Shown: positions 15,898 to 58,476, numbered from the stretch's first letter. The stretch: 64,000 bases of DNA from Candidatus Forterrea multitransposorum CG_2015-17_Forterrea_25_41 (GCA_009392915.1 CP045477.1:96001-160000), one strand, 5' to 3'. Made by a program: numbers and translations. The notes: generated by a model not told the origin, from the letters alone.

Positions 15898-17103
15898 TTG
15901 ATTAATATGTTTTCAAAAAAAATTATTTTAGTATCTGTTTTATTTTTACTTACATCTTTATTTTCGGGGTTGATTTTCTCTGAAAGATATATAGATAGTT
16001 CTTATGTTCAAGTTATTGCTCAAGAAGTAAGTCCTGAACCAGTAGAGCCTGGTCAAGATTTTTTACTAAAAGTTAGAGTTCATAATTTTGGAACAGTGGA
16101 TGCTAAAAATGTAAAAATTAATCTTGATTTAAATTATCCTTTTTATTTAAAAAATACAAGTGAGTCTTATATTGACTTTAATTCGATTTGTTCTAATTGT
16201 TCTGCAGAAAATACATATTATTTTACAGTTTCAAGTTCTGCAGTTTCAGGGATATATCCAATACATTTTAATATATCTGAAATAAATAATGAAACTGTTT
16301 CTTTTAAACCTCAAATAATAGATATTTCCATATTAGGTAAACCTGATTTAGTTTTAGAAACCATAAAAGTAGATCAAAATATTTCTGCCGGAGATATATT
16401 TAATATTAAATTTTTATTAAGGAATATAGGTACTGGGAATTCTAGAAATATAAAAATAATTCCTAATTCTGATGATTTTATGCTTATTGGGACAAATACT
16501 AAATGGTTTGAAGAATTAGGTCCCAATAAAGAAATTATTTTTGATTTAAATTTTATTTCAAACAAAGATTTAATTTCAAATAGTTATATTTTTCCTATAG
16601 ATCTTGAATTTTTAGGAGAAAAACAAAATTTTTATACCTCTTCATATAATATTGGAATTAATCTTTTAGGAAAAGCAGATTTATCTTTACAAAATTTAAA
16701 AATTACTCCTTTAAACCCTTCTTTAAAAGATTTAATTAATTTTGAAGGAATTATTGAAAATATAGGAAATGGAAAAGCAAATAATGTTTCTTTAGAATTA
16801 TTTGTTTCAAATGATGAGAATTATAAATATTATATTGGTCAATTAAATAAAGATGATGATGCTCCTTTTTATTTTAATGAAATTAAATTTAATTCTGTTG
16901 GAAATAATAAAGTAAATTTGATTGTAAATTATGATGATGATTACGGTAATTATAAAATAGAAATTCCTTTAAATCAAAATATAAATAAATCTAATAATTT
17001 ATCTTTATTTTTTATAGTTTTATTTTTATTTTTGGTTTTATTTTTTAGTTTGTATTTATTAAAAAATAATAAACACAATAAAAATAAAAAAATAAAGAAT
17101 TGA
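15898..17103 (+). CDS. secreted CARDB-domain repeat protein with C-terminal TM anchor
   Basis: signal peptide; at least 3 repeats of a VEPGQDF...NFGTVDAKNVKIN / NIGTGNSRNIKII / NIGNGKANNVSLEL beta-sandwich (CARDB-like); C-terminal hydrophobic helix plus KNNKHNKNKK. Confidence 0.55.
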   Translation: MINMFSKKIILVSVLFLLTSLFSGLIFSERYIDSSYVQVIAQEVSPEPVEPGQDFLLKVRVHNFGTVDAKNVKINLDLNYPFYLKNTSESYIDFNSICSNCSAENTYYFTVSSSAVSGIYPIHFNISEINNETVSFKPQIIDISILGKPDLVLETIKVDQNISAGDIFNIKFLLRNIGTGNSRNIKIIPNSDDFMLIGTNTKWFEELGPNKEIIFDLNFISNKDLISNSYIFPIDLEFLGEKQNFYTSSYNIGINLLGKADLSLQNLKITPLNPSLKDLINFEGIIENIGNGKANNVSLELFVSNDENYKYYIGQLNKDDDAPFYFNEIKFNSVGNNKVNLIVNYDDDYGNYKIEIPLNQNINKSNNLSLFFIVLFLFLVLFFSLYLLKNNKHNKNKKIKN

Positions 17104-22380: not shown

Positions 22381-25300
22381 ATGAAAAATAAGATACTAAT
22401 AATTTTTTTATTTACAATTTTACTTTCAACTTTTATTTTTTCAGATCCTGTTGTAAAGATAAATGATAATTTAACAACATATACAAACAGTGATTCTGAA
22501 AACTTCTATGTTGAAGTAAGTAATACTGGAGATAATTGTGAAGTTGAATCTGATTTTATAAGTATTAATTTAAGTTCAGATGCAGCAAGTTCTTTTCCAT
22601 ATTTAATATACTGTAATCTTGAAAGAAATTATAGTGGTTATTTTTCAGTAGATTTTTCAACAAACACACCAACACCTCCAATACCAAATGTTTTAGTTAA
22701 TAATGAAGATACTGTTATTGCAGACTATAATGGGTTTACTGCTAATTTAGTAGTTGACACAATAAATACTATAACAGGAACTTTTGATTTAAATTCTGTT
22801 GATTCAGTTGTAAATAATTACTATAAAGGAGATGTTGAAGTTACTTCTTTAAGTTCTTTTTCAGATGCACATTCTGGTTTAAAAGAATATTACATTTATA
22901 TTGTTGAAGTTGATTCAGTAAATGACTATAGAGATGATTATTATAAGAGATTAATTGTAGATGTTAATGAAACTTCTATTGATTTAGGTACATCTACAAC
23001 TGTTTCTGATGGAAATTATTTTGTTTTAGTTGAAGCTTTAGATTATGCTGAAAATCTTGCAATACCTTCTCAAGTAATTTTAAATAAAAAAAATATGTAT
23101 GTTGATAATACAGCACCTCAAGTAACTTCTTTTAGTTTAGGAAGTTTTTCAGAAGGTACAACTTATTATGTTCCTTCAACAACTACTACTTTGACTTTAT
23201 TAATTGAAGATGATGGTGTAGGGGTAAGGAATGAACCTCTATATACACAAATAGATAGAGATAGTGTAAAGTTAGCAGATTATAATTCTATATTAGGCGG
23301 TTTCTTTTTTGATTTTACAACAGTTGATTATGATATTGATGGTTCATATGAGCTTGCAGCAACAGATCTTTTAGGTAATTTAAATGAAAAAACATTTTCA
23401 ATAATGATAGATGAAACTTCTCCAACAACTCCAACAATTTCAACAGTTACAAGAGCTGTAGATAATAATGTTACAATTTCAAATTGGGGTACTTCAACTG
23501 ATTCTGGAAGTGGTTTAAAAGAATACAAAGTCTATAGGTCAACTTCTTCTTTTACAGAAGTTTCAAATCAAGATTTAATTTGTACAGTTTCTGCAGCTGC
23601 TTCAAAAACTTGTCTTGATTCAACTTCAAAATCAGATGATACAAGATATTATTATGGTGTTACTGCAGTTGATAATGCAGGAAATAATAGTCCAGTTGTA
23701 ACTGCAAGCATAAAAACAGGTCCTGAACTTGATATTTATATTGATTTAGAAGATTCTGATTTTGTAAATACTGTTACTCCAGAGATAACTTTAGAGTATG
23801 GTTCTGATGTTAATGCTGTTAGATTTAGTTGTAATGCTTCAACTTTTACATCATGGGTTGAAGTTTCGGGAACTTCTGAGGTTTATGAAAGTTTTAATGT
23901 AACTTCTGGAAATGGATGTAATACAGATCAAGGAGATAAAATAATTTATGTTGAAGCAAGAAGTGAAGACGATCCTTATCTTATTACTAGAGAATCTTTT
24001 GAGTTTGAACTTGATTCAAAAGCACCAACAATACCTAGTAACATAGAAGTTTTAGAACAAGCAAATGGTTCTTTAAATATTTCTTGGACAAGCTCAACAG
24101 ATGTAAATGGTAGTGGTCTTGAAGAATACAGGATTTATTATTCAGAATCTGAGTCAGTTTCTAAATCCTCACAATATATGACTTCTTCAGATGAAGAGTA
24201 TATTTTTAATCCTAATGAAGATAAAACATTTTATTTTAAAATATCTGCAATTGATGAAGCATTAAATGAATCTGATCTTTCATCTATTGCTTCTGGAACT
24301 GCAAAAAGATTTGGACCTTCTTTTACTTTTAATGCAAGCCCAAAAAATTTAATTGATGATGTTTATTATTTAAAAAAAGGAAATGTTTTATTTACTATTA
24401 CAAGTAGTGAAGAATTAAAACAAACACCTATTATTAGACTTAAAATTGGTAATTCACCTTATAAATCAATTTCTGCAATTTATAGTAATTTAATTACAAC
24501 TTTTAATTATTCTTTAGAAGAAAGTGGAGATTCAATTTTAGAAATTACAGGTACAAATAATAATAATGAAACAACAACTGATACTTTTAATTTTATAGTA
24601 GATGCAGAAGTTCCAACTTTTACTGCTGACTATAATTTCTTTGAAGATACTAAATTATATGAATTTAAAATAAGTGATTTTTCAGATGATGTTTTCAGAG
24701 TTCAATATTTATTTAATAATGTTGAAGAAGTTTGTTTTATTGAAGATTCAAATAACAATTATCTTTGTTCACTTGATTCTACTCTTTATAAAGATGGTAA
24801 TCATAAAATGTATGTTTTAGTTTATGATAGAGCATTAAATTATGAAACTGAAATTATTTCTTTTGAAATAGATAATGTTGATGAAGCTTTAATTTTAAAA
24901 GAAAATTTAGTTGCTGAAATTAATACAAATATTTTTACAATTGAAGATAGAATTTCTTTCCTTCAAGCAATCTCTTTAGAAGTTTCTCAAGATGTTTTAG
25001 ATAAATTTTCTGAAGCTAAAGAAAAAGTTGTTCTTGCAAAATCTCTAGAAGATTCAAATAATTTTTCAGAAGCTGTAAATACTTATACTTCTGTAAATAA
25101 TTCTTTACTTGAGATATTAGAAGTTTTACCTACAGAAAATGTTTTAAAAACAAAAACTATTGAAATTGATCTTTTAGATAATTCTTTTGATCTTAATACA
25201 GTTATTTTGGATCAAAATATATTAACTGATAATTTGTCTTTTTATGATGTTAATAATCAAGACCTAAATTTTATATCAGTTTCAAGAGAATTTAGTGTTT

Positions 25301-25959
25301 TTGAAGTATCTGGTCAAAACTTTTATTCTAGTAATTTAATTTTTGTAAATGACTCTAATGTAGATAAAGTAATTTCTTTTATTGAAGTAATACCTAAAGA
25401 ATTTGAAAAATCTTCAGATAATATTTATTTTGATAGAAATATTGTTGTAATTGATAAAGATCCAATAATTCTTTATAATTTAGTAATTCCTAAAAATTCT
25501 TCTCTTACAACAAAATATATTAGTCAAACAGCAATTACAAGTTTTGATATTTTAACTAAATTTGATGCAATTGTTTACAAGTCTCCTCTTCTTTTAACTG
25601 GATCTGTAAATTTAGAAGATTTAAATTTTGAAAAACCTTTAATTGATAGTAAATCTTTATTTATGATAGCAGTTGTTCTTTTAATAATAATTATCTTACT
25701 TTTAGTAATCTGGATGGTGGCTTCTGGTCGTAAGAAAAAAGAAGATGTCTTTAAAGAAATGGAACCTAAGGATGCTATGAATAAATATCTTGGAAATAAA
25801 CTAAATAGTAATTCTCAAGAAAAATCTTCAACTGATTCTTCTTCATCTAAAACTTTAGAAGAAAAAGAAGAAGAGCATAAAAGTGATCTTGAAAAGAAAA
25901 AGAAGTATGATAGTAATTATGAGTTTATTTTAGATGCTGTTAAAAGAAGTAATAAATAA
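22381..25959 (+). CDS. large secreted surface protein with C-terminal TM anchor (S-layer/adhesin-like)
   Basis: 1192 aa; Sec signal peptide; Thr/Ser/Asn-rich beta-rich body with Ig/FN3-like segments; C-terminal LFMIAVVLLIIIILLLVIWMVASGRKKK anchor plus a 70-aa charged tail. Confidence 0.5.
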   Translation: MKNKILIIFLFTILLSTFIFSDPVVKINDNLTTYTNSDSENFYVEVSNTGDNCEVESDFISINLSSDAASSFPYLIYCNLERNYSGYFSVDFSTNTPTPPIPNVLVNNEDTVIADYNGFTANLVVDTINTITGTFDLNSVDSVVNNYYKGDVEVTSLSSFSDAHSGLKEYYIYIVEVDSVNDYRDDYYKRLIVDVNETSIDLGTSTTVSDGNYFVLVEALDYAENLAIPSQVILNKKNMYVDNTAPQVTSFSLGSFSEGTTYYVPSTTTTLTLLIEDDGVGVRNEPLYTQIDRDSVKLADYNSILGGFFFDFTTVDYDIDGSYELAATDLLGNLNEKTFSIMIDETSPTTPTISTVTRAVDNNVTISNWGTSTDSGSGLKEYKVYRSTSSFTEVSNQDLICTVSAAASKTCLDSTSKSDDTRYYYGVTAVDNAGNNSPVVTASIKTGPELDIYIDLEDSDFVNTVTPEITLEYGSDVNAVRFSCNASTFTSWVEVSGTSEVYESFNVTSGNGCNTDQGDKIIYVEARSEDDPYLITRESFEFELDSKAPTIPSNIEVLEQANGSLNISWTSSTDVNGSGLEEYRIYYSESESVSKSSQYMTSSDEEYIFNPNEDKTFYFKISAIDEALNESDLSSIASGTAKRFGPSFTFNASPKNLIDDVYYLKKGNVLFTITSSEELKQTPIIRLKIGNSPYKSISAIYSNLITTFNYSLEESGDSILEITGTNNNNETTTDTFNFIVDAEVPTFTADYNFFEDTKLYEFKISDFSDDVFRVQYLFNNVEEVCFIEDSNNNYLCSLDSTLYKDGNHKMYVLVYDRALNYETEIISFEIDNVDEALILKENLVAEINTNIFTIEDRISFLQAISLEVSQDVLDKFSEAKEKVVLAKSLEDSNNFSEAVNTYTSVNNSLLEILEVLPTENVLKTKTIEIDLLDNSFDLNTVILDQNILTDNLSFYDVNNQDLNFISVSREFSVFEVSGQNFYSSNLIFVNDSNVDKVISFIEVIPKEFEKSSDNIYFDRNIVVIDKDPIILYNLVIPKNSSLTTKYISQTAITSFDILTKFDAIVYKSPLLLTGSVNLEDLNFEKPLIDSKSLFMIAVVLLIIIILLLVIWMVASGRKKKEDVFKEMEPKDAMNKYLGNKLNSNSQEKSSTDSSSSKTLEEKEEEHKSDLEKKKKYDSNYEFILDAVKRSNK

Positions 25960-29566: not shown

Positions 29567-31015
29567 CTAATTAACTATTAGTTTTGGTATTGGTAAGTTT
29601 AATTGAGGAAAATAATTATTTATTTTCTCAATAATTTTTTTTTCTTTTACAATTACTTTTTCTTTGTCTATTAAATATTTATTTTCATTTACATCTATTT
29701 TCTTAATGGTTTCAAGCTTCAAATATTTTATTGATTGAGCAAGTAAAGAATCATAAAACTTAGTATTTTTATGTTCTATAAACTTAGGTATCTCTTCAAT
29801 AAGGTCATTTATAAGTTTGTATTCTGTTAGATATTGTATAAACATAGGATTTTGTTCTAAATTGTTCTTGAAAGAATAATTATAGTTAAAAGAATTACTT
29901 AAATTTATAGAAGTTTCTAAATATTTTAATCTCTTTAAATATTCTTTTATTTTAATAGATAAGAAAGATTCTTTCTTTAAACAATACCATTTGATTTCAT
30001 CTAAGTTATCAATTATTTCAATTTCTTCTTCTGAAACTAAATTTACTGCATCTATTAAAGGAATACTTGCAAAATCTCCTTTGTAAAAAGGTCCTGTTGG
30101 CATTTCTTTTAAACCATTATTTTTTTTGAAATTAATTCTATTTTCTTTATTTATATTCTCTTGATGGAATTGTTCATATGCCCATTTTTGATCTTTTGAA
30201 ATAAAATAGAATCCTTGTTTTTTAAATCTTACTTTAACAATTGAATTTGATAAAACATTTATATCTAAATAGTTTTTTGGTTTACAACAATCACAATTTA
30301 AAGTATCATGCCCTATATTGTAAAAATCTTTTGTTAAAAGATATGGCCAGATATTTGAAAAATCCATTTTAATTCCTTGTCTTATGTTTTTTTCTTTTTC
30401 TAAGTATTCTATACTAATTTTATTGTTTAGCATCATTTTATTTTCAAAATATAAGTTTTCAAAGAAATTATTTAAAATTTCTTGATTATTAATATTTTTA
30501 ATTTTTATTTTTAATATGTTACTTAAAAGTAGTTTTTTAGTTAAGTTTTCAATTAACTTTAATTGCTCTTCTTTTAAGAAAGGATTTATATATTTTTTAA
30601 CAATTGAACTTATATTGTTATTTTCTATTTTTTTAATTCTTGTTTTTGAAACAATTATAAATAAATCATAATAACTCCATTCTTTCTCAATTAAATACTC
30701 TCTTTCAATATCTAAGATTAATATGTTTTTAGAAGTAGATATAGATAATATTTTATAAATCTTATTTAATGTTTCTTTATTTTTTGCAATTACTTTAATT
30801 TTATTTTTTTCAATTTTTTCTATATTTACTTCTCTTTTAAAATCAGATAATAGCTTTTGTACTACTTCTTTTGGAAGGTCAATATAAAAATAAGGGTTAA
30901 ATTTTTCCTTATAAACAAAATCATACTTATTGCTATAAGGATCTTTTGAAAAATAGCTTATAATTCTTTGTTTTTCTTCTTCATACACGCATTCTGTTAA
31001 ATATAGTTGTTCCAT
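29567..31015 (-). CDS. degenerate family-B DNA polymerase homolog (PolB-like, likely catalytically inactive)
   Basis: 482 aa; the N-terminus LYLTECVYEEEKQRIISYF...KFNPYFYI is colinear with the PolB N-terminal domain (ILDVDYITEEGKPVIRLF...FRPYIYAL); ILILDIE matches Exo I (FDIET); the Exo II NGDxFD is absent; DFAS-IPLI (motif A lacking LYPS), LSNSFNYNY (motif B-like) and FYDSLL (motif C lacking DTD) occur in the canonical order. Confidence 0.45.
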   Translation of the reverse strand: MEQLYLTECVYEEEKQRIISYFSKDPYSNKYDFVYKEKFNPYFYIDLPKEVVQKLLSDFKREVNIEKIEKNKIKVIAKNKETLNKIYKILSISTSKNILILDIEREYLIEKEWSYYDLFIIVSKTRIKKIENNNISSIVKKYINPFLKEEQLKLIENLTKKLLLSNILKIKIKNINNQEILNNFFENLYFENKMMLNNKISIEYLEKEKNIRQGIKMDFSNIWPYLLTKDFYNIGHDTLNCDCCKPKNYLDINVLSNSIVKVRFKKQGFYFISKDQKWAYEQFHQENINKENRINFKKNNGLKEMPTGPFYKGDFASIPLIDAVNLVSEEEIEIIDNLDEIKWYCLKKESFLSIKIKEYLKRLKYLETSINLSNSFNYNYSFKNNLEQNPMFIQYLTEYKLINDLIEEIPKFIEHKNTKFYDSLLAQSIKYLKLETIKKIDVNENKYLIDKEKVIVKEKKIIEKINNYFPQLNLPIPKLIVN

Positions 31016-35605: not shown

Positions 35606-36077
35606 AATATTATTTGTTTGTAGTGGGAATGTTTTTAGAAGTATGTGTGCTAAATATTGTTTAGAATATTTTTTAGCTAAAAATAATATTAAAAATATTT
35701 CTGTAGATTCTGCAGGTATTTCTGTAACTTCTAAAAAACCACAAAATATTGCTTTAGAAGTTAAAGAGTTACTTTTTAAAAAAGGAATAGATGTTTCAAA
35801 GCATTTATCTAAGAATGTTTCAAAAGTTGATTTAAAATCTTTTGATTTAGTAATCTCTATGGGTTATAATCATAAAAAATATTTAAAAGAAAAATATGGT
35901 ATTTCTTCTGTTTTATTTAATAAAGTGTGTTACGGTGTTAATTATCCTGTTTATGATAATAATGAAATTTTAAAAGAATATAAAGGTTTTAGAGGTAAGA
36001 TTTATAATATAGAAGTTGTTAAAAAAATTTATTCAGATATTAAATTTTTTCACAAAAATTATAAAAAATTCATTTAA
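35598..36077 (+). CDS. low-molecular-weight protein tyrosine phosphatase / arsenate reductase fold
   Basis: KILFVCSGNVFRS P-loop (CxGNxxRS) and a DSAG-containing segment; the ATG at 35598 is chosen (the track ORF from 35586 overlaps the upstream gene). Confidence 0.75.
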   Translation: MVKILFVCSGNVFRSMCAKYCLEYFLAKNNIKNISVDSAGISVTSKKPQNIALEVKELLFKKGIDVSKHLSKNVSKVDLKSFDLVISMGYNHKKYLKEKYGISSVLFNKVCYGVNYPVYDNNEILKEYKGFRGKIYNIEVVKKIYSDIKFFHKNYKKFI

Positions 36078-36705
36078 TTTTTTTTAAACAAATTTTGTTT
36101 ATTGGGCATTTTTCACAATTAGGATTTCTTGGAAAACAAATGTTTTGTCCTAAGATAACAAATAAATAGTTTGTATCTATCCAAAATTTTTTAGGAAGTT
36201 TATTTCTTAAAACCATTTCTGTTTCTAAAGGGTTTTTTGTTTCAATATAGCCTATTCTATTAAATATTCTGTGTACATGTGTATCTACACAAATAGCTGG
36301 TATTTTATATGATACTGCAATTACTAGATTTGCAGTTTTTCTTCCTACACCTGGAAGAGTAATTAATTCTTCTATGGTTCTTGGTACTTTATTATTAAAA
36401 TCTTCTTTTAATTTTTTTGCAAGTAACTTTAAGTTTTTAGCTTTAGTTTTATAAAATCCAACAGGATATAATAATTGTTCTAATTTTTCAATTTTAATTT
36501 TTATTAAGTCATCTGTATTCTTTATTTCTTTAAATAAATTATCACAAACTTTTGCAGTAATTTGATCTTTTGTTCTTGCTGAAAGCATTGTTCCAATTAA
36601 TACATAAAAAGAATTTTTACTTTTAATATCTATTTGTTCTGCAAGAGGAATTGTGTACTCTTTTAACTCTTTTTCAAGAATTTTATATATTTTTTCAATA
36701 TCCAT
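36070..36705 (-). CDS. nth: endonuclease III (DNA glycosylase/AP lyase)
   Basis: HhH-GPD fold (LPGVGRKTANLV), catalytic region, and a C-terminal 4Fe-4S cluster loop CFPRNPNCEKCPINKIC. Confidence 0.85.
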   Translation of the reverse strand: MDIEKIYKILEKELKEYTIPLAEQIDIKSKNSFYVLIGTMLSARTKDQITAKVCDNLFKEIKNTDDLIKIKIEKLEQLLYPVGFYKTKAKNLKLLAKKLKEDFNNKVPRTIEELITLPGVGRKTANLVIAVSYKIPAICVDTHVHRIFNRIGYIETKNPLETEMVLRNKLPKKFWIDTNYLFVILGQNICFPRNPNCEKCPINKICLKKIK

Positions 36706-36791: not shown

Positions 36792-38186
36792 ATGAACAAA
36801 AATTTAACAAAATTATTTTTCTGGATATTTGGTATAATATTCAGTGGAATTTTTTATTTTTTCTCAAAAACATCTACTTCTTTATCATATATTAATGAAA
36901 TTAAGTTTCTTCCATACGTAATAATGTTAATAATTATTTTGTTATTTTTCTTAATTGGTATTTTATTTTCGAAAATACCTTTTTTTTGGTATTCAAAATT
37001 TAGAAAATCCAATCTTAATGAAGTTTTATCTGAAGTTGATGTAAAAAAAACTGAAGAAAATATTGATCAATTAATTGATAAATTAAAAGATGCTATAAAA
37101 AATATTAGTAAAAGTAATTATTCTCAAATATCTATAAATTATTTAATAAAGAATGTAGGTATTTCAAAAGAAAGTGCAGATGGAATTATTAAAAATATAA
37201 AGAGATTAAAAAGATTAAAAACTTTATCAATAGCTTTAGGAATTATAATTTCTTTAGGTTTATATTTTTTTGTAAGTAGTTTACCAGTATTTAATATTAT
37301 TCCAAATTATGTGTTTATAATATCTGCAGTAATTATTTTTCTTTTATTTGTTTTAGAAGGTTATTTAATTACAAGAATGCCTGATTCATTTTATTTAAAT
37401 TTAATTAATATAAATAAAGAAAAAATATTAGAAGTTAAAAGAGAATCTTTAGAAAAAGAAGAAAAGTTAAATAATTATAATCAAAAACAAAAAGGTTTGT
37501 TAGATAATATTCAAAAAGCAACTAAATTTCTTTTATCTCAAGATGTAAGTAAAGAAGCAATTTCTAATTTCTTTAGTAAATATGATGTTGATCAGTCTAC
37601 AATTTCAAAATTTATTGAACTTTCAGAAAAAGAATTAAATATTGAAAAGAATAATTCTGGAAAAGTTTTATTTAATGCAAAATCAGATTCTGCAATAAGA
37701 TTAACTCTTTCTAAAATACACGATAGTTTTGAACAAATTAATCAAATATATAATGAAGTTTCAAAACTTCAAAAAGAAGTAAGTGATATTTCTCAAAGAC
37801 AAGAAAAACTTGAAAAAATGTCAACTATTAGTGTTTCAAAAGAAGTTAAAAAACTTAAAAAAGAACCAATAATGTCAAACAAGTATAAGGATTTAAAAAA
37901 AGCAGATCCTAAAGAAATTAAAGAATTGTTAGATAAAAGAAATGAAGAATATGATAAACTTATAAGTTATTTATATCACTTGTTCTTACCATCTGTTGAA
38001 ACTTCTTCTCAAAATGATGTTTTTTCTACATTAGTTTATTATGGTTATCCTTATGAGATTGTAGAAGATGTTTTACAAAAGTTTAAAGATAAAAAAATTA
38101 ATTTCGGGAAAGATAAAAAAGTATCTTTCTCTGAAAAATTAGTAAATAAAATTAATGGTTTTTATGAATTATTTGCCTCTAAATAA
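36792..38186 (+). CDS. polytopic membrane protein with long coiled-coil (paralog A of unknown family)
   Basis: 464 aa; two TM hairpins (res ~5-60 and ~145-190) flank a soluble insert, followed by ~200 aa of predicted coiled-coil and a conserved C-terminal domain (VYYGYPYEIVEDVLQKF); paralogous to 49583-50956. Confidence 0.5.
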   Translation: MNKNLTKLFFWIFGIIFSGIFYFFSKTSTSLSYINEIKFLPYVIMLIIILLFFLIGILFSKIPFFWYSKFRKSNLNEVLSEVDVKKTEENIDQLIDKLKDAIKNISKSNYSQISINYLIKNVGISKESADGIIKNIKRLKRLKTLSIALGIIISLGLYFFVSSLPVFNIIPNYVFIISAVIIFLLFVLEGYLITRMPDSFYLNLININKEKILEVKRESLEKEEKLNNYNQKQKGLLDNIQKATKFLLSQDVSKEAISNFFSKYDVDQSTISKFIELSEKELNIEKNNSGKVLFNAKSDSAIRLTLSKIHDSFEQINQIYNEVSKLQKEVSDISQRQEKLEKMSTISVSKEVKKLKKEPIMSNKYKDLKKADPKEIKELLDKRNEEYDKLISYLYHLFLPSVETSSQNDVFSTLVYYGYPYEIVEDVLQKFKDKKINFGKDKKVSFSEKLVNKINGFYELFASK

Positions 38187-38189
38187 AAA

Positions 38190-39479
38190 CTATATTAATT
38201 TTACTTTTTGTATTTTTGAAAAACTATAAAGTGAGCTTCCAAAGAACTTTTGTTCTTTTGAAAATTCTATTTCTTTAAATAGTTCTTTTAAATTACCTGT
38301 TAAATTTAAGTTTGTAATAGTTTCCTTAAAATTACCATCTTTAATAACCTTTCCAGAAGATATTGTTAATGAAAAGTCACCAGTTGTTATTTTGTTTGTG
38401 TGAAACCCTAAAATCTCATAAACTAAGATTCCTTTTTTAGTTTTTGATATCATATCTTCTATTTTTTTAGTACCTGCTTCTTGTATTAAGTTTGTATATT
38501 CTGGATTAAATCCATTTTCAAGGAATGCATTTCCAGTTGGTTTTTTATTATATTTTATACTTTCATAAAGATTATAGATTGGTTTTCTAAAAATACCTTT
38601 ATTAATTATATTTTTCTTAGAAGTCTTAAATCCTTCATCATCTATTCTTGAAGAATTTAAAAAATAATCAATAGTTGGATCTTCTTTTAGATTTATGTTT
38701 TCAGAAAATATTTTTTTTCCTAAAGAATCGTGTAAAAAACTATTTTTCTTTTCAATAGCTTCTCCTTTTGTTCCTGAAAGAATAAATTCAAAAAATTCTC
38801 TTGTAATTTCTGGAGTAAATATTAAAGTGTATTCTCCTTTTTCACCATTTACAGGATCCATTAAAGTATATGCATTATGTTTTGCTTGCATAAATGTTTG
38901 ATTAATGTCAATATCTTCTTTTTTTGTAAATATTGAAGAAAAATCACCAGATGATTTTTTTTTATTTTTTGTAATTACTAGAGATGATAGTGAAATAAAA
39001 TCAATTTTATTTTCTTTACTAAGATAAGGATTTATAAAAAAACTTTCTATATGGTTTTTTGAAACACCTCCAAGATATCCTTGAATATATTTATCTTTAG
39101 TTAAGTTTTCTTTAATTTTTTCTAAAGTTTTTGAAAAATCTATTTTTTCTATTTCTGAATCATATTTTATTTTCTTATTATTAATATCTTTTCCAAAATT
39201 TTCAAACTTAACTTCTGATTTTTTATTTCTGGCAATATCTTTTGCTTTCTTAACACCTTTTTCAATTTTTTCTTTTGTAATTCCTTGTATGCTGTAGGAA
39301 CCTATTTTTCCTTTATCTATAACTCTTATAAATAATCTATCTATGTTATTCATTCTATAATTTTCAATTGAGAAATTTCTAAATTCTCCTTTTTCACTTT
39401 CATTTTTTATATATTTAAAAGTAACTTCTTCTTTTTTACTTATTTTTTCACAATAATTAAATATTTCTTCTTTATTCAT
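38190..39479 (-). CDS. PmbA/TldE family metalloprotease partner
   Basis: 429 aa; TldD/PmbA-fold C-terminal domain; lacks HExxxH; overlaps the upstream tldD-like gene by 8 nt. Confidence 0.65.
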   Translation of the reverse strand: MNKEEIFNYCEKISKKEEVTFKYIKNESEKGEFRNFSIENYRMNNIDRLFIRVIDKGKIGSYSIQGITKEKIEKGVKKAKDIARNKKSEVKFENFGKDINNKKIKYDSEIEKIDFSKTLEKIKENLTKDKYIQGYLGGVSKNHIESFFINPYLSKENKIDFISLSSLVITKNKKKSSGDFSSIFTKKEDIDINQTFMQAKHNAYTLMDPVNGEKGEYTLIFTPEITREFFEFILSGTKGEAIEKKNSFLHDSLGKKIFSENINLKEDPTIDYFLNSSRIDDEGFKTSKKNIINKGIFRKPIYNLYESIKYNKKPTGNAFLENGFNPEYTNLIQEAGTKKIEDMISKTKKGILVYEILGFHTNKITTGDFSLTISSGKVIKDGNFKETITNLNLTGNLKELFKEIEFSKEQKFFGSSLYSFSKIQKVKLI

Positions 39480-40860
39480 GTTTTGTACCCCCTACAATAA
39501 CATTTTCTATTTTAATTAAGGGGCTACTTCCACTTACAAAAGCTGTTTGCCCATTTTTTCCACAATACCCAAATTCAAAATTTCCAACCTTGTTTGAAAT
39601 TTCTGTTATTTTATTTAAATATTTTAAAATATCTCCAGATATTGATGCTTGTTTATATTTATTTATAATTTCTCCATGTTTATATTCATAAGCTTGTCTA
39701 ATTCCAAACATAAATGTTCCAATATTTGTATCTACTTCTCCACCTGAAAATCCTTTAAGTAAAAATCCAGTGTAATCTGATAACATATCTTTTACTTTAG
39801 TTGTTCCTTCTTTAAAATATGTGTTGCTCATTCTAACTATAGGAAGATAATTATAGTTTTCACTTCTTGCAGAACCATTTGAAACTTCATTTAATTTTGT
39901 TGCAGTTGTAATATCTGTCATAAACTCATTTACAACTCCATTTTTAATAAGATCTACTTTTTTTGATTTAATTCCTTCATCATCATATTTAAAATATCCA
40001 AAATCTTTTTTCTCTGGATTATCTATAATATTTACTTCTTTGTTATTTGAAACTTTTAATCCTTTTTTAAGAACTGTTGTTTTATCTATTAAAAAATCTC
40101 CTTCACAAGCATGACCTATTGCTTCATGTGCTAAAAGTTCACCAACATCTGGACTTAAAATAATATCTGTTGTAATTGCAGGACATGGTTTTGATTCTAA
40201 TAATTCTTGAAGTGTTCTTCTATTTTCAAGAACCGTTTTCATTTTATCTTCTTTGTTAAATATTTCAAGACCACCTAGATTTCCAAGTCTATCTACATTA
40301 GTTTCTATTTGGTTATTTCTTTTTCCTGTTATTTTTGAATAAAACACAGTATATGGTCTTTTTTGATGTATTTCTGAATCGTTTGTTAAAAAGTATTTTT
40401 CAATTTCTGTTTCTTTATAAATTATTTCTGAATTTAGTATGTTTATATCTCTATTACTTGTTTTTAATATTTCTTTATTAATTTCATTAAATTCTTTTAT
40501 TTTTTGAGAATTTGAAATACTTTCAAAATCTTTATATTTTAAAATATCTTTTCCTTTATTTGTGGAATAATTCTTAAATTCTGTTTTTTTATTTATTTTT
40601 TTTGTATTTTCAATAACTCTATCTATTTTTTCTTTATATTTTGAAAATTCATTTAATGCTAAGAAACCTACTTTTTTATCTACAATTATTCTAATTCCAA
40701 TTCCTTCAGTTTCTTTTTCAATAAGTTCTTTTGTAGAAGTATTTTCAACATCTATTATTCTATTTTTATGTTTTTCAAACCTTACTTCAAAATAATCAAG
40801 GTTTTTTGTATTTAGATATTTTTTAATATCATAAAGCATAGGTATTATTTTTTTATCCAT
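39472..40860 (-). CDS. tldD: TldD family zinc metalloprotease
   Basis: 462 aa; LAHEAIGHACEGD carries the TldD HExxxH zinc site. Confidence 0.75.
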   Translation of the reverse strand: MDKKIIPMLYDIKKYLNTKNLDYFEVRFEKHKNRIIDVENTSTKELIEKETEGIGIRIIVDKKVGFLALNEFSKYKEKIDRVIENTKKINKKTEFKNYSTNKGKDILKYKDFESISNSQKIKEFNEINKEILKTSNRDINILNSEIIYKETEIEKYFLTNDSEIHQKRPYTVFYSKITGKRNNQIETNVDRLGNLGGLEIFNKEDKMKTVLENRRTLQELLESKPCPAITTDIILSPDVGELLAHEAIGHACEGDFLIDKTTVLKKGLKVSNNKEVNIIDNPEKKDFGYFKYDDEGIKSKKVDLIKNGVVNEFMTDITTATKLNEVSNGSARSENYNYLPIVRMSNTYFKEGTTKVKDMLSDYTGFLLKGFSGGEVDTNIGTFMFGIRQAYEYKHGEIINKYKQASISGDILKYLNKITEISNKVGNFEFGYCGKNGQTAFVSGSSPLIKIENVIVGGTKHE

Positions 40861-46443: not shown

Positions 46444-46518
46444 GGGAGTGTAGCTTAGTCTGGTTGGAGCACTCGACTGATAATCGAGAGGCCGCAGGTT
46501 CGAATCCTGCCATTCCCA
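46444..46518 (+). tRNA. tRNA-Ile (anticodon GAU)
   Basis: GGGAGTG-TA-GCTT-AGTCTGGTTG-GAGC-A-CTCGA-CTGATAA-TCGAG-AGGCC-GCAGG-TTCGAAT-CCTGC-CATTCCC-A; no CCA encoded. Confidence 0.85.
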
Positions 46519-46559
46519 CTTTCTATTTTTATATAGATTTTAAAAAAAGAGGATAATTT

Positions 46560-49076: not shown

Positions 49077-49415
49077 ATGAAAGTAAAAGATATAAAACCT
49101 TTCCAAAAAAAAATAAGTCTTTTATGTAAAGTAATTTCAAAGACTGAAATAAGAAAAGTAGTTTCAAGATTAGATGAAATTGAACATAAAGTTTGTGAAG
49201 CTTTAATTGGTGATGATACTGGTGTTGTTTATCTTACTTTATGGGATTTATCTATAGAAAATTTACAAGAAGGTAAGGTTTATTCTTTTGAAAATCTTTA
49301 TTCTTCAGAGTTTAAAAAATCTTTAAGACTTAATCTTGGAAGATTTGGAGAATTTAAAGAAGTTTCTCAAGAAATTGAAGTAAACAAAGAAAATAATCTT
49401 TCAAAAGAAGTTTAA
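49077..49415 (+). CDS. single OB-fold ssDNA-binding (RPA/SSB-like) protein
   Basis: 112 aa; KISLLCKVIS...ALIGDDTGVVYLTLWD matches the RPA-type OB-fold signature (IGDETGxIRLTLW). Confidence 0.55.
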   Translation: MKVKDIKPFQKKISLLCKVISKTEIRKVVSRLDEIEHKVCEALIGDDTGVVYLTLWDLSIENLQEGKVYSFENLYSSEFKKSLRLNLGRFGEFKEVSQEIEVNKENNLSKEV

Positions 49416-49450: not shown

Positions 49451-49525
49451 GGAAGTGTAGCTTAGTCTGGTTAGAGCATTGGTCTTATACACCAAAGGTC
49501 GCAGGTTCGAATCCTGCCATTTCCA
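49451..49525 (+). tRNA. tRNA-Ile (anticodon UAU)
   Basis: GGAAGTG-TA-GCTT-AGTCTGGTTA-GAGC-A-TTGGT-CTTATAC-ACCAA-AGGTC-GCAGG-TTCGAAT-CCTGC-CATTTCC-A; the anticodon loop reads C-U-U-A-U-A-C; near-identical backbone to tRNA-Ile(GAU). Confidence 0.75.
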
Positions 49526-49582
49526 CTTTTTTTTAAAAATAAAGCTTTATAAATCTAATTAACTACTATATATTAGATAATT

Positions 49583-50956
49583 ATGGGTTATTCTTTTAAA
49601 AAAGAAAGTAGATTATTTTTTTGGATATTAAGTATTTTACTTTCTTCATTAATATTTTCTATATTATATTTCTTCCAAGTGTTTGGAAGTTCTCAAAATA
49701 ATTCTCTTTCATTTATCTTTTCATTAATTATTTTAATTGTTTTATTTATTGTTGGTATGTTTAATTATAAACTTACAACAAAGCTATATGGTTTTATTTC
49801 TTCACAAAGAGATTTATCTAAACTTATAAGTAGAATTAATCTAGATGATTCTGAAGAAAATATTCAAAAAATGATTAGTAGATTTAAAGAAGTTTTTTAT
49901 AATCTTGATCTTTCAGATAAAGAAGGTTCAATTTTAATTATTAGAAAAACTGTTGGCTTAGATTCTGATGCTGCTTTCAAAGTATATAAGATTCTAAAAA
50001 ATATTAGTTTTACAAAAAATGTTTTAACTATTTCTGGTTTTTTAATATCTGTAATTGTTTATTTTATAATTACAAAAATTAATTTTTTTAATATTATTAC
50101 TGAAACTAAGTTTTTCCCACTTGCAATTTCTTTATTATTATTTTTTATATTTTTATTTGAAAGTAGATTGTCTTCTAAAATACCTTCTAGTTTTTATATT
50201 AACCTTGTAATTATTAATAAAAAAGCATTAACAAATAGTAAAAAGGATGTAATTGATAGTGAAAATCAATTAAATAATATTTTTAAAAAAAGAGATGAAA
50301 TTAGAGAAAAAATAAAAGATATTGTTTTTAATTTAACAAAACAAGGTTTTAAAAAAAAAGATGTTGTTGAAATAATTAATTCTAGAAAAAAAGATTCTTA
50401 TGGTCTAAAAGATTTAATTATGCAATCAAATGAAGATTTTAATTCAGAAGCAAAAAAAGCTTCTTTTAAAGATGTTTCTTTAGATATTGAGAATATTTTA
50501 AAATTTTATGAAGATGTTAAAAATAAAGAAAAAGAAGTGCTTTCTTTAAAAGAGAAAATAAACCAAATTAGAGAAATTCAAGAAACTGTTGAAAAAATAA
50601 ATTCTAATGATTGGGATTATTATAAAAATATTAAATTTAATTTAAATAAATCTAAAGAATTTGAAAGAAACATAACTGATGAAATTTCAAGTAAATTACA
50701 TCATAGATCTGAACTTAAGGAAGATAAAGAAGTTATAATTAAAAATTTATATAATTTATTCATAAATTATAAAGACTCAATTACAAAAGATCAAGTTTAT
50801 TCTTTTTTAATTTCTAAAGGTTATTGTTATGAAACTATTATGGATCTTTTTGATGAATTTAAGAAAAATAATATTGATTTAACTAAAAATAAAAAAACTT
50901 TTCAAGACAAAATTATTTCAAAGATTAATAATGTTTATGAAAGTTTTAAAGATTAG
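49583..50956 (+). CDS. polytopic membrane protein with long coiled-coil (paralog B)
   Basis: 457 aa; same architecture as 36792-38186 (2 TM, insert, 2 TM, PSSFYINLVIINKK, coiled-coil, C-terminal VYSFLISKGYCYETIMDLFDEF). Confidence 0.5.
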   Translation: MGYSFKKESRLFFWILSILLSSLIFSILYFFQVFGSSQNNSLSFIFSLIILIVLFIVGMFNYKLTTKLYGFISSQRDLSKLISRINLDDSEENIQKMISRFKEVFYNLDLSDKEGSILIIRKTVGLDSDAAFKVYKILKNISFTKNVLTISGFLISVIVYFIITKINFFNIITETKFFPLAISLLLFFIFLFESRLSSKIPSSFYINLVIINKKALTNSKKDVIDSENQLNNIFKKRDEIREKIKDIVFNLTKQGFKKKDVVEIINSRKKDSYGLKDLIMQSNEDFNSEAKKASFKDVSLDIENILKFYEDVKNKEKEVLSLKEKINQIREIQETVEKINSNDWDYYKNIKFNLNKSKEFERNITDEISSKLHHRSELKEDKEVIIKNLYNLFINYKDSITKDQVYSFLISKGYCYETIMDLFDEFKKNNIDLTKNKKTFQDKIISKINNVYESFKD

Positions 50957-51061
50957 TTTTTAGATAAATTTAAAAATCTGTTTATAAATATAATAAATAA
51001 AAGAGATATATTTAAATTTAAAAGAGATAATAAAAATAGATAATAAAAGAGATAATAAAAC

Positions 51062-52408
51062 ATGATTGAACCAAACACATTTTTTTTAATATTTTCAGCA
51101 ATTTTTTTAATTGCTTTTTTTGGAAATCTTTTTTTTAAAAAGACAAGATTTTCAGATATTTCTATTCTTTTAATCATCGGTTTTTTAATTGGTTCTGTGT
51201 TTAACATTATTACCAATTCTCAACTTGAAATTTTAAAAAGTATGTCTTCTTTATTTGGTTCTTTAGCTTTAATTATTATTCTTTTTGAAGGTGGACTTCA
51301 TCTTAATTTTTATAAAGTTTTAAGAGAGATTGGAAAAGCTACAATGTTTACAATTGCAGTTTTCTTTTTTACAGTTCTTTTCTCTGGAGTTTTACTTCAT
51401 TATATTTTTTCAATACCTGCAATTTATGCACTTTTAATTGGTTCTGCAATTGGAGGTGTAAGTTCTGCTGTGGTAATTCCTTTAGTTATGAACTCTAAAT
51501 CTAAAGAAGAAACTAAAACTTTAATTACTTTAGAGTCTGCAATTACTGATGTTTTGTGTATTATTGTCTTTATAACTCTTTTTGAAATAATTGTGACTCA
51601 AAAATCAAGTATTCAGTTTGTTACTCAAAATATAATTTCTGCATTTGCAATTGCAACTGTTATAGGTGCAGTTTCAGGAATTGTTTGGACAAAGGTTTTA
51701 AGAGATTTTAATGTTATTAGAAAATTTAATTATCTTTTAACTCTTTCTTTTTTATTTTTAATTTATGTTTTAATTGAATATGCAAAAGGAAATGGAGCTT
51801 TTGGAGTTTTAATCTTTGGTTTAGTTTTAGGTAATTCTAATGAAATTTTAAAAATATTTAAAATGAAAACTTTAAGTCTTGATAATGTTGTTAGTTTAAA
51901 TGAAGTTTATAAGTTTCAAGCAGAAATTAGTTTATTTATTAAAGCATTTTTCTTTATTTATTTAGGACTTATAATTGATCTTTCTTCTGTAACTTTAAAT
52001 ATTATTTTAATTTCTGCAGTTTTAATTTTTGTATCAATTGCTTCTAGGTATTTATCCATTTATATATTTTCTGGAGATAAGACAATTAAGCAAGATACAA
52101 GATATATTTTATCTCTTCATGCAAGAGGACTTGCTGCTGCTGTTTTAGGTACTTATCCAATTGCTATGGGTCTTGTAAACAATTATACTTTAATCCTTTT
52201 ACCAATAACTTTCCTTGTAATCTTTTTAACAAATATTACAACTACTTTTATGTTTTTCTTTACAGAAAGAAATAAACTTAAGGAAGAGTCTTTAAATGAA
52301 GAATCTTCAGAAAAAGATTCTTCTCAGGAAGAAGAAACTAATCCTTATAGTTTAATTAAAAAATCTAATAAAAATAAAGATTCTAAAGAAAAAATAGATG
52401 ATAATTAA
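51062..52408 (+). CDS. cation:proton antiporter (NhaP/CPA1-type Na+/H+ exchanger)
   Basis: 448 aa; ~12 TM helices; LFEGGLHL and IGGVSSAVVIP segments typical of CPA1; acidic C-terminal tail. Confidence 0.6.
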   Translation: MIEPNTFFLIFSAIFLIAFFGNLFFKKTRFSDISILLIIGFLIGSVFNIITNSQLEILKSMSSLFGSLALIIILFEGGLHLNFYKVLREIGKATMFTIAVFFFTVLFSGVLLHYIFSIPAIYALLIGSAIGGVSSAVVIPLVMNSKSKEETKTLITLESAITDVLCIIVFITLFEIIVTQKSSIQFVTQNIISAFAIATVIGAVSGIVWTKVLRDFNVIRKFNYLLTLSFLFLIYVLIEYAKGNGAFGVLIFGLVLGNSNEILKIFKMKTLSLDNVVSLNEVYKFQAEISLFIKAFFFIYLGLIIDLSSVTLNIILISAVLIFVSIASRYLSIYIFSGDKTIKQDTRYILSLHARGLAAAVLGTYPIAMGLVNNYTLILLPITFLVIFLTNITTTFMFFFTERNKLKEESLNEESSEKDSSQEEETNPYSLIKKSNKNKDSKEKIDDN

Positions 52409-57595: not shown

Positions 57596-58099
57596 ATGTT
57601 AAATAATAAAGTTAATGCTGTAATTGACTCTTCATTTTGGATAAACTTGAGTAGAGTTGATCTTACAAAATATTTATTAGATTATTTTACTATTTATTCT
57701 ACCATAAAAGTAAAAGAAGAACTTTTTGATTTTTACGAAAGAAGAGGTTATTTTTCAAAAGATTCTTATCTTTTTAAGTTATATTTAGAAGCAGATTTTA
57801 TTATTTTAAAAGACCTTAAAGAAATTACTTTAAAAATAAAGCAAGAATTGTCAAAAGATTCTGGAGAGTTATATTCTGCTGCTCTTTTAAAGGAAATTGG
57901 AGGTGTTTTTTTAACAGATGATAAGGGGGCACTTAATTTTTGCAAAAATAATAATCTTTTTGCAATTACTTCTGTTTATTTAATAGTTAGACTTTATAAG
58001 GATAATTTAATATCAAAAGAAAAAGCTAAATTTTCAATTATGCGATTAAAAGGAAAAATAAGTAATATACATATACAATCTGCTTTAAAGGATTTATAG
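57596..58099 (+). CDS. PIN-like nuclease domain protein (DUF3368-like toxin candidate)
   Basis: 167 aa; N-terminal AVIDSSFWINL acidic PIN start; internal TDDKGAL. Confidence 0.4.
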   Translation: MLNNKVNAVIDSSFWINLSRVDLTKYLLDYFTIYSTIKVKEELFDFYERRGYFSKDSYLFKLYLEADFIILKDLKEITLKIKQELSKDSGELYSAALLKEIGGVFLTDDKGALNFCKNNNLFAITSVYLIVRLYKDNLISKEKAKFSIMRLKGKISNIHIQSALKDL

Positions 58100-58119
58100 T
58101 ATAAAAGGAGGTTTTTAAC

Positions 58120-58476
58120 ATGGTTAAAAAAGATTATAAATTGAAATCTTATAGATTATCTGATAGTTCCTTAAAATTAATATATAATGTTTCTAAAGAA
58201 AAAGATTTGAGTGAATCTGAAGCTTTAAGAATGTTAGTTGACAAAGGGCTTTATGAATATAAGTTAGAGTCAGCAATAAAAACATATTATGATAAAAATT
58301 TAGATTTAACTGCTGGAGCAAAACTTGCTGGTATTTCCAAAAGAGAGTTTATGGAAGAACTTTCAAGAAAAGGGGAAGGTATTAATCTTTCAAAAGAAGA
58401 TTATGATTATTCTAAAAAATCTTTTGAAAAATTATTTGGAAAAACAAAAAAGAAAACTACTCAAAAGCCCAAGTAG
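58120..58476 (+). CDS. UPF0175-like HTH antitoxin candidate
   Basis: 118 aa; LDLTAGAKLAGISKREFMEELSRKG resembles the UPF0175 HTH (ISLGKAAELAGMSRWEF...); SD AAGGAGG. Confidence 0.45.
   Translation: MVKKDYKLKSYRLSDSSLKLIYNVSKEKDLSESEALRMLVDKGLYEYKLESAIKTYYDKNLDLTAGAKLAGISKREFMEELSRKGEGINLSKEDYDYSKKSFEKLFGKTKKKTTQKPK

Follow-up and report, generated by a model that had tools for sequence, protein, structure and literature searches.

The genes at 36792..38186 (paralog A) and 49583..50956 (paralog B) encode members of an unclassified protein family that, by sequence searches, is narrow and restricted to one lineage of DPANN archaea. In these proteins, a unit of about 145 amino acids, consisting of a transmembrane (TM) hairpin and a small three-helix module, occurs twice in tandem and is followed by a coiled coil, a third three-helix module and a terminal helix. 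All large soluble parts are predicted to face the cytoplasm. We propose, tentatively and with a rough probability of 0.4, that A and B may act as membrane-anchored cytoplasmic scaffolds or tethers for a cytoplasmic partner. Both genes lie in the window, that is, the whole 64,000-nucleotide stretch of DNA that was analysed, which is archaeal by gene content (thermosome, GatD/GatE, several aminoacyl-tRNA synthetases, aIF2-gamma and aIF5B-like GTPases). Their features are as follows (window coordinates, strand, residues).

36792..38186, plus strand: paralog A gene, a monocistronic unit encoding 464 aa
36813..36968, plus strand: A, TM hairpin 1, aa 8-59 (TM1 8-26, TM2 40-59), from hydropathy and AF2 helices
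A, aa 60-67: SKIPFFWY, directly after hairpin 1
37014..37220, plus strand: A, predicted cytoplasmic insert, aa 75-143, a linker helix and three-helix module 1 (aa 90-142)
37221..37370, plus strand: A, TM hairpin 2, aa 144-193 (TM3 144-162, TM4 175-193), with conserved G150, F186 and E189
37374..37403, plus strand: A, juxtamembrane motif RMPDSFYLNL, aa 195-204, with invariant P197 and Y201
37383..37538, plus strand: A, predicted cytoplasmic helix of 52 residues, aa 198-249, from AF2, with weak heptads
37485..37661, plus strand: A, three-helix module 2, aa 232-290, with AF2 helices 254-262 and 268-289
37686..37823, plus strand: A, coiled-coil helix, aa 299-344, 46 residues of unbroken a/d heptads, from AF2
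37824..37943, plus strand: A, variable, indel-rich linker, aa 345-384, with alignment gaps and pLDDT down to 56-57
37944..38099, plus strand: A, three-helix module 3, aa 385-436, of RecX-repeat-like fold, with invariant D426 and near-invariant Y395, P400 and L414
38127..38177, plus strand: A, C-terminal amphipathic helix, aa 446-462, with conserved I454, N455 and Y458
49583..50956, plus strand: paralog B gene, encoding 457 aa
49613..49765, plus strand: B, TM hairpin 1, aa 11-61, from hydropathy and alignment to A
49859..50014, plus strand: B, three-helix module 1, aa 93-144, from alignment
50018..50173, plus strand: B, TM hairpin 2, aa 146-197, from hydropathy and alignment
50177..50206, plus strand: B, juxtamembrane motif KIPSSFYINL, aa 199-208
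50288..50446, plus strand: B, three-helix module 2, aa 236-288, from alignment
50465..50602, plus strand: B, coiled-coil helix, aa 295-340, from the heptad test and alignment
50720..50875, plus strand: B, three-helix module 3, aa 380-431
50900..50950, plus strand: B, C-terminal helix, aa 440-456, from alignment

The original prediction called two paralogous open reading frames (ORFs), and both are present at exactly these coordinates, on the plus strand and 11.4 kb apart. Their similarity is far above chance and persists on proper alignment. BLASTP with composition adjustment aligns A and B at 27% identity over 428 aa (E=5e-35). The Smith–Waterman score is 496, compared with 105 ± 19 for shuffles in which the composition of the TM and soluble regions was preserved separately (z=20); for the soluble tails taken by themselves, z is 15.8. 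The dN/dS ratio is 0.065 for A and 0.14 for B, measured against orthologs from related MAGs that are 97% and 92% identical, respectively. Purifying selection acts on both genes, which are real, constrained and true paralogs rather than a compositional artefact.

The AF2 model of A is all-helical (mean pLDDT 74.5, pTM 0.41). Two TM hairpins separated by a soluble insert of about 80 aa had been predicted, and this architecture is borne out by hydropathy, with four hydrophobic segments in A (8-26, 40-59, 144-162 and 175-193). Within the insert, the model places helices at residues 75-107, 111-122 and 126-163, the last of which runs straight into TM3. The (M/I)PxSFY(L/I)NL motif said to end the second hairpin is likewise present in both proteins; the juxtamembrane stretch past TM4, an amphipathic PxSFYLNLxxINK, is the best-conserved segment of the family. 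Four residues are invariant across 28 members: G123 (module 1 turn), P197 and Y201 (after TM4) and D426 (module 3). A further seven (G56, G150, F186, L247, Y395, L414 and N455) are kept in at least 26 of the 28, and E189 (in TM4) and P400 in 25.

The claim of about 200 aa of heptad-rich coiled coil holds only for the 46-residue helix 299-344, whose heptads are clean: hydrophobicity at a/d positions is 0.71 versus 0.25 elsewhere, family-wide, a value matched by 1 of 500 shuffles. The rest of that region comprises a weak-heptad helix (198-249, for which 22 of 500 shuffles attain the observed value), a three-helix module and a poorly conserved linker. The C-terminal part of helix 198-249 is helix A of module 2. 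By contrast, the C-terminal domain singled out in the original prediction is indeed conserved, and it folds confidently (pLDDT >93 over its first 60 residues): when the C-terminal 82 residues are modelled from a 27-sequence alignment, they form a three-helix bundle with pLDDT 93-97.

A feature absent from the original prediction is that the N-terminal ~290 residues of A are an internal tandem duplication. Profile–profile comparison with hhalign aligns residues 1-143 with residues 138-292 over 135 columns, with 99.5% probability (E=7.4e-23). Each repeated ~145-aa unit opens with a TM hairpin, continues through a (K/R)-h-P-x-x-aromatic-Y juxtamembrane motif and a linker helix, and closes with a small three-helix module; in the alignment of the two units, SKIPFFWY after hairpin 1 pairs with TRMPDSFY after hairpin 2. 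The parts also match separately, hairpin 1 with hairpin 2 (98.9%, E=1.8e-17) and module 1 with module 2 (94%, E=1.3e-7). A third copy of the module lies near the C-terminus; it aligns with module 2 at E=1.2e-5 and with module 1 only at E=0.004. Taken together, these profile comparisons strongly support homology of all three modules, an origin of the protein by tandem duplication of the hairpin-plus-module unit, and the addition of the coiled coil, the third bundle and the terminal helix after the duplicated units. The best matches in the PDB for a stacked profile of the three modules are idealised de novo helical designs, indicating that the motif is generic. An invariant 'VGIS...A' stretch in module 1 was considered as a helix-hairpin-helix DNA-binding motif and dropped: the same glycine turn occurs in all three modules, where it is the turn between helix B and helix C.

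The orientation of the protein in the membrane can be predicted from its charges. The family median net charge (28 members) is +2 at the N-terminus, 0 in each inter-helix loop of about 13 residues, +7 in module 1 and +2 after TM4. Because this distribution follows the positive-inside rule across the family, an N-in/C-in topology is strongly supported, in which the insert and the ~270-aa tail would be cytoplasmic and only the two ~13-residue loops would lie outside. In the model, helix C of module 1 is continuous with TM3 (helix 126-163), and therefore the basic module should sit on the inner surface of the membrane. A cytoplasmic location for all large soluble parts argues against a role in cell contact and fits a cytoplasm-facing scaffold or tether. 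Of the two functions originally suggested, membrane tethering or cell contact, tethering is thus plausible on the cytoplasmic side only, and cell contact is unsupported.

The family is small. An exhaustive HMMER search of 1.84 billion cluster representatives returned only 27 proteins at E<=0.001, 22 of them at E<1e-30. The full-length members, of 420-495 aa and the same architecture, fall into 22 homolog clusters. They are annotated throughout as 'hypothetical protein', the source being given as 'archaeon' or 'Candidatus ainarchaeum sp.', and the named sources (Candidatus Iainarchaeum, Candidatus ainarchaeum sp. and Candidatus Diapherotrites MAGs; Iainarchaeota, DPANN/Nanobdellati) are all of Iainarchaeota/Diapherotrites type, in keeping with the proposed lineage specificity. 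In a word-indexed homology search A had 14 relatives and B had 3; a further such search with the 28-member profile added no members, and no relatives were found on viral contigs in IMG/VR. Unannotated lineage-specific membrane proteins are frequent in DPANN genomes.

That A and B belong to no recognisable family also held: searches of Pfam, NCBIfam, PADLOC (anti-phage models), PDB sequences and Foldseek gave no significant match for either. The PDB sequence search with a single protein likewise gave nothing significant, and no curated cut-off was reached in a Pfam scan of the 28 members. An SMC-like or methyl-accepting origin, raised at the outset as a possible known home, finds no SMC_N, SMC hinge, MCPsignal or HAMP match in Pfam or NCBIfam. 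Below threshold, the N-terminal domain of ComEC, DUF4131 (PF13567), matches 10 of the 28 members (best 23.2 bits, E=6.3e-5, against a cut-off of 31.6); these matches end at about profile position 58, which is the TM hairpin, except in P0031 (to 86), and one lies on hairpin 2. No Competence or Lactamase_B domain was found in the Pfam scans of A, B and the 28 members. MnhE/MrpE (PF01899) matches the N-terminal hairpin only, in five members (best E=0.0069, 16.6 bits, cut-off 27), and no mrp genes lie near A or B. The sub-threshold DUF4131, MNHE, Tetraspanin, Saf_2TM and PrgI matches were set aside as probable TM-composition matches, nearly all being confined to a hydrophobic hairpin. Literature searches on Iainarchaeum membrane proteins and DPANN coiled-coil membrane proteins turned up no account of the family or of its duplicated build. 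Although the family is unclassified, its elements (TM hairpins, a coiled coil and an HTH-like three-helix bundle) are familiar.

The three-helix bundle has its closest resemblance in RecX, a bacterial RecA regulator (Pfam RecX_HTH1/2/3, PF02631; PDB 3e3v, 3d5l, 3dfg and 3c1d). In Pfam, RecX_HTH3 matches 3 of the 28 members (best E=0.0024) and RecX_HTH1 matches 2 (E=0.049), at about 14-15 bits against a cut-off of 26 and hence sub-threshold; those that were located fall on module 3. A profile of the C-terminal domain also ranks RecX first in the PDB, but not significantly (3e3v, E=0.11; 3c1d, E=0.37). The likeness is confined to the fold of the single repeat. RecX is a soluble protein in which three tandem HTH-like three-helix bundles of about 50 aa are contiguous and stack into one curved, elongated rod, with a basic face that binds the RecA filament and DNA (PMC2500204), whereas the modules of the present family are dispersed (aa 90-142, 232-290 and 385-436) by a TM hairpin and long helices within a four-TM protein. 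Moreover, RecX is bacterial and this family is archaeal, with no recA/radA gene adjoining A or B in the window or in related loci. Pex14, of the peroxisomal docking machinery, is more remote: it is eukaryotic, has its bundle at the N-terminus and a single TM segment, and lacks sequence similarity to the family, so that the resemblance probably reflects a shared common small fold.

CdpA (HVO_0739) is the nearest functional analogy. It is a haloarchaeal division-ring anchor, shown to hold cytoplasmic filaments at the membrane and to organise them there, and some genomes carry paralogous 'CdpA-like' copies (PMC12126565). Like A and B, CdpA is archaeal; its N-terminal part contains four TM segments, from which a long cytoplasmic connector leads to a small conserved domain at the C-terminus. 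In CdpA, however, a compact TM domain occupies aa 17-149, the hairpins follow each other without an 80-aa insert, and a disordered linker takes the place of helices or a coiled coil; three-helix modules are not described for it (PMC12126565). No sequence similarity to CdpA came to light, the exhaustive profile search having recovered nothing beyond the 27 members of the family.

The genomic surroundings of the two paralogs differ (window coordinates).

36070-36705, minus strand: nth (endonuclease III), divergent neighbour of A
38190-39479, minus strand: tldD/pmbA, convergent neighbour of A
49077-49415: Ssb-like OB-fold gene, upstream of B
49451-49526: tRNA-Ile(TAT), upstream of B
51062-52408: CPA-type Na+/H+ exchanger gene, downstream of B

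Paralog A stands alone between the divergent nth and convergent tldD/pmbA pair. It is B that, as first noted for one of the copies, follows the OB-fold gene and tRNA-Ile. Between B and the exchanger gene lie a T5 tract past the B stop codon and then a 106 bp AT-rich spacer; IleRS is found beyond the exchanger. Other large ORFs of the window do carry surface-type (adhesin) domains (Ig, CARDB and fibronectin).

In the window's own clade (at least 47% identity to A), the A-type gene is always located between nth and tldD. More distant members with enough flanking sequence (P0019/P0041, P0022, P0025, P0031, P0032, P0034 and locus L021) are found at the locus of B, in the order thermosome-SSB-[X]-(Na/H exchanger)-IleRS; P0029 shares only the downstream exchanger, its upstream neighbour being an ABC-type ATPase and not SSB. 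Despite this B-type locus, the distant members are nearer in sequence to A (24-39%) than to B (19-27%). The simplest reading is that the SSB/IleRS locus would be ancestral and that a duplication within the window's clade put a copy beside nth. On the same reading, A, in its new position between nth and tldD, retained the ancestral type of sequence, and B at the ancestral locus diverged about twice as fast, consistent with the higher dN/dS of B. The history would then be an example of asymmetric divergence, the positional ortholog having diverged faster than the relocated copy. The family gene keeps 25-35% identity where the flanking thermosome, SSB, exchanger and IleRS genes keep 55-73%, and thus evolves quickly.

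How might such a protein work? In the scaffold or tether that we propose, the two hairpins would form a compact membrane anchor, aided by small-xxx-small motifs in TM1 and TM3 and by the conserved glutamate near the cytoplasmic end of TM4. The coiled coil 299-344 would drive homo-dimerisation, or hetero-dimerisation of A with B. The three RecX-type, HTH-like modules may serve for docking, keeping a cytoplasmic partner at the inner membrane surface, the strongly basic module 1 being rigidly joined to TM3 and modules 2 and 3 being borne on long helices. The logic would be comparable to that of CdpA, ZipA or EzrA-type anchors. Our best guess is that the partner is a polyanionic polymer: DNA, nucleoprotein or a cytoskeletal filament. 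We see no evidence of a new kind of mechanism; the family fits a membrane-anchored helical scaffold.

Other functions have to be weighed against this proposal. Reticulon and REEP (DP1/Yop1) proteins have two hydrophobic hairpins with a hydrophilic loop between them and a conserved amphipathic helix after them. A and B share this layout, though in architecture only: two homologous hairpins, a hydrophilic insert of about 80 aa and the conserved amphipathic PxSFYLNLxxINK just after TM4 match the textbook reticulon-homology architecture. The hairpins and the amphipathic helix might accordingly wedge into the membrane and make or stabilise curvature, with the coiled coil at hand for oligomerisation. 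We nevertheless consider a membrane shaper of this type unlikely. Reticulon (PF02453) and TB2_DP1_HVA22 (PF03134) are not listed even at E<=1 for A or B, nor do they appear among the families shown for the 28-member scan. In addition, the TM segments, of 17-20 residues each and with 13-residue loops between them, have the length needed to cross the whole bilayer, and a large structured cytoplasmic tail of 270 aa, with its coiled coil, and three conserved globular modules would be superfluous for wedging.

A second alternative takes its cue from the exchanger gene. B and most outgroup members lie directly upstream of a Na_H_Exchanger gene, in one case with a gap of only 7 bp, E189 in TM4 is widely conserved, and five of the 28 members show weak MNHE (MrpE) matches over the N-terminal hairpin; the protein could then assist or regulate the neighbouring CPA-type Na+/H+ (K+/H+) exchanger as one of its subunits, or be an ion-related membrane protein that uses the TM4 glutamate. 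However, IleRS comes immediately after the family gene in P0031 and P0032. The missing exchanger in these two lineages indicates that the adjacency is synteny and not an obligatory functional link, as does the collinearity of the whole thermosome-SSB-X-NHE-IleRS block across the lineage; on both counts, a functional operon of the two genes does not hold in general. No transporter gene adjoins paralog A, B is parted from the exchanger gene in the window by the T5 tract and the spacer, and the MNHE matches (at most 16.6 bits) are sub-threshold and involve the hydrophobic hairpin only. An exchanger- or ion-related role is, on balance, quite unlikely.

A further and more novel reading, which we regard as distinctly improbable, is that the family is a DPANN-specific membrane-anchored protein that handles DNA or nucleoprotein, its modules binding DNA, or a filament coated by RadA or SSB, on the inner side of the membrane and A and B forming a heterodimer. 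Such a protein might, for example, tether the nucleoid or receive imported DNA. The leads are weak and mutually independent: the RecX-like modules, with a basic module 1; the sub-threshold ComEC-N (DUF4131) matches on the hairpins; the Ssb-like OB-fold gene that immediately precedes the putative ancestral locus in almost all lineages examined; and the divergent arrangement of A with endonuclease III.

Many DPANN archaea are episymbionts (PMC11291902), and a lineage-specific family that evolves faster than its neighbours could in principle serve as an extracellular cell-contact or adhesion protein for attachment to the host. This is highly improbable, as the positive-inside charges of the 28 members put the insert and the tail in the cytoplasm, leaving two ~13-aa external loops, and no adhesin-type domain (Ig, CARDB or fibronectin) matches A or B. 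Finally, although the window has a G+C content of only ~20-29% and such genomes yield long ORFs rich in lysine, asparagine and isoleucine, the reading that there is no real family, and that the similarity stems from low-complexity K/N/I-rich composition, is refuted by the composition-adjusted BLASTP and shuffle results, the dN/dS values well under 1, the invariant residues in 22 full-length homolog clusters and the confident AF2 C-terminal domain.

A membrane-anchored cytoplasmic scaffold or tether is our preferred reading of A and B. DPANN archaea have tiny genomes with a large share of uncharacterised genes, and conserved lineage-specific membrane proteins are prime candidates for unusual cell biology. 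The present family is under purifying selection in a reduced genome (the contigs of relatives are only ~0.67 Mb), and two copies have been retained in one clade. Its modular build offers defined soluble fragments, together with residues G123, P197, Y201, D426 and E189, for testing. If the proteins are not tethers, this will be one more well-described 'hypothetical' family; if they truly tether a filament or DNA, they would constitute a new archaeal anchoring system beside CdpA and SepF.

The two paralogs, both four-transmembrane-segment membrane proteins of a lineage-specific archaeal family, have diverged asymmetrically, as seen with the related loci L014, L018, L021, L025, L026 and L027. Paralog B (49583-50956), which occupies the positionally ancestral SSB/IleRS locus, is the sequence-divergent one, with a dN/dS of 0.14, whereas the relocated copy (paralog A, 36792-38186) has a dN/dS of 0.065 and is nearer to the outgroup proteins than paralog B is. 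Beside paralog A, two TldD/PmbA-family metallopeptidase genes (38190-40860, minus strand) lie in tandem with an overlap of 8 nt, and all close relatives keep this pair at the side of paralog A. On one related metagenome contig, the Ssb-like gene is separated from the family gene by an inserted 462-residue ORF (L021 3681-5069), which has no counterpart in the window or at the other loci.

Paralog B adjoins one of two isoleucine tRNA genes:

49451-49526, tRNA-Ile, anticodon TAT (UAU), the gene adjacent to paralog B
46444-46519, tRNA-Ile, anticodon GAT

AUA is decoded in most archaea by a CAU tRNA carrying an agmatidine modification. A true UAU tRNA-Ile has been reported from few lineages only, for example Nanoarchaeum and Korarchaeum. 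Its presence here may reflect strongly AT-rich codon usage. Downstream of paralog B, three of the five copies of AAAGAGATA in the whole window are clustered at 51000-51054, with spacings of 21 and 25 nt, and the 62 nt ahead of the Na+/H+-exchanger start codon (51062) contain all three. The triplet may serve in regulation, or may have arisen by chance in AT-rich sequence.

Two large ORFs without any Pfam match are additional lineage-specific unknowns:

60142-62544, plus strand, 800-residue ORF
29567-31015, minus strand, 482-residue ORF

At the position corresponding to the latter, two related loci (L010 633-2078 and L011 1-1435) carry a minus-strand, Pfam-less gene for about 481-482 residues upstream of the sulfatase gene, which is probably its counterpart. 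Elsewhere, a UPF0175 (antitoxin-like) gene (58120-58476) is preceded by a 167-residue ORF for which no Pfam match was found. Because a relative has a DUF3368 gene and a 97-residue ORF at the corresponding position (L002 14974-15757), the whole pair (57596-58476) is probably a small toxin–antitoxin-type pair.

Surface-type domains are found in three large proteins encoded in the window:

4562-7531, 989-residue protein that combines CHB_HEX_C and InlB B-repeat domains with a pilin-type (archaeal class III) signal peptide
15898-17103, CARDB protein
22381-25959, 1192-residue protein with a Big_13 Ig-like domain

For roles at the cell surface or in cell contact, these three proteins are better candidates than paralogs A and B.
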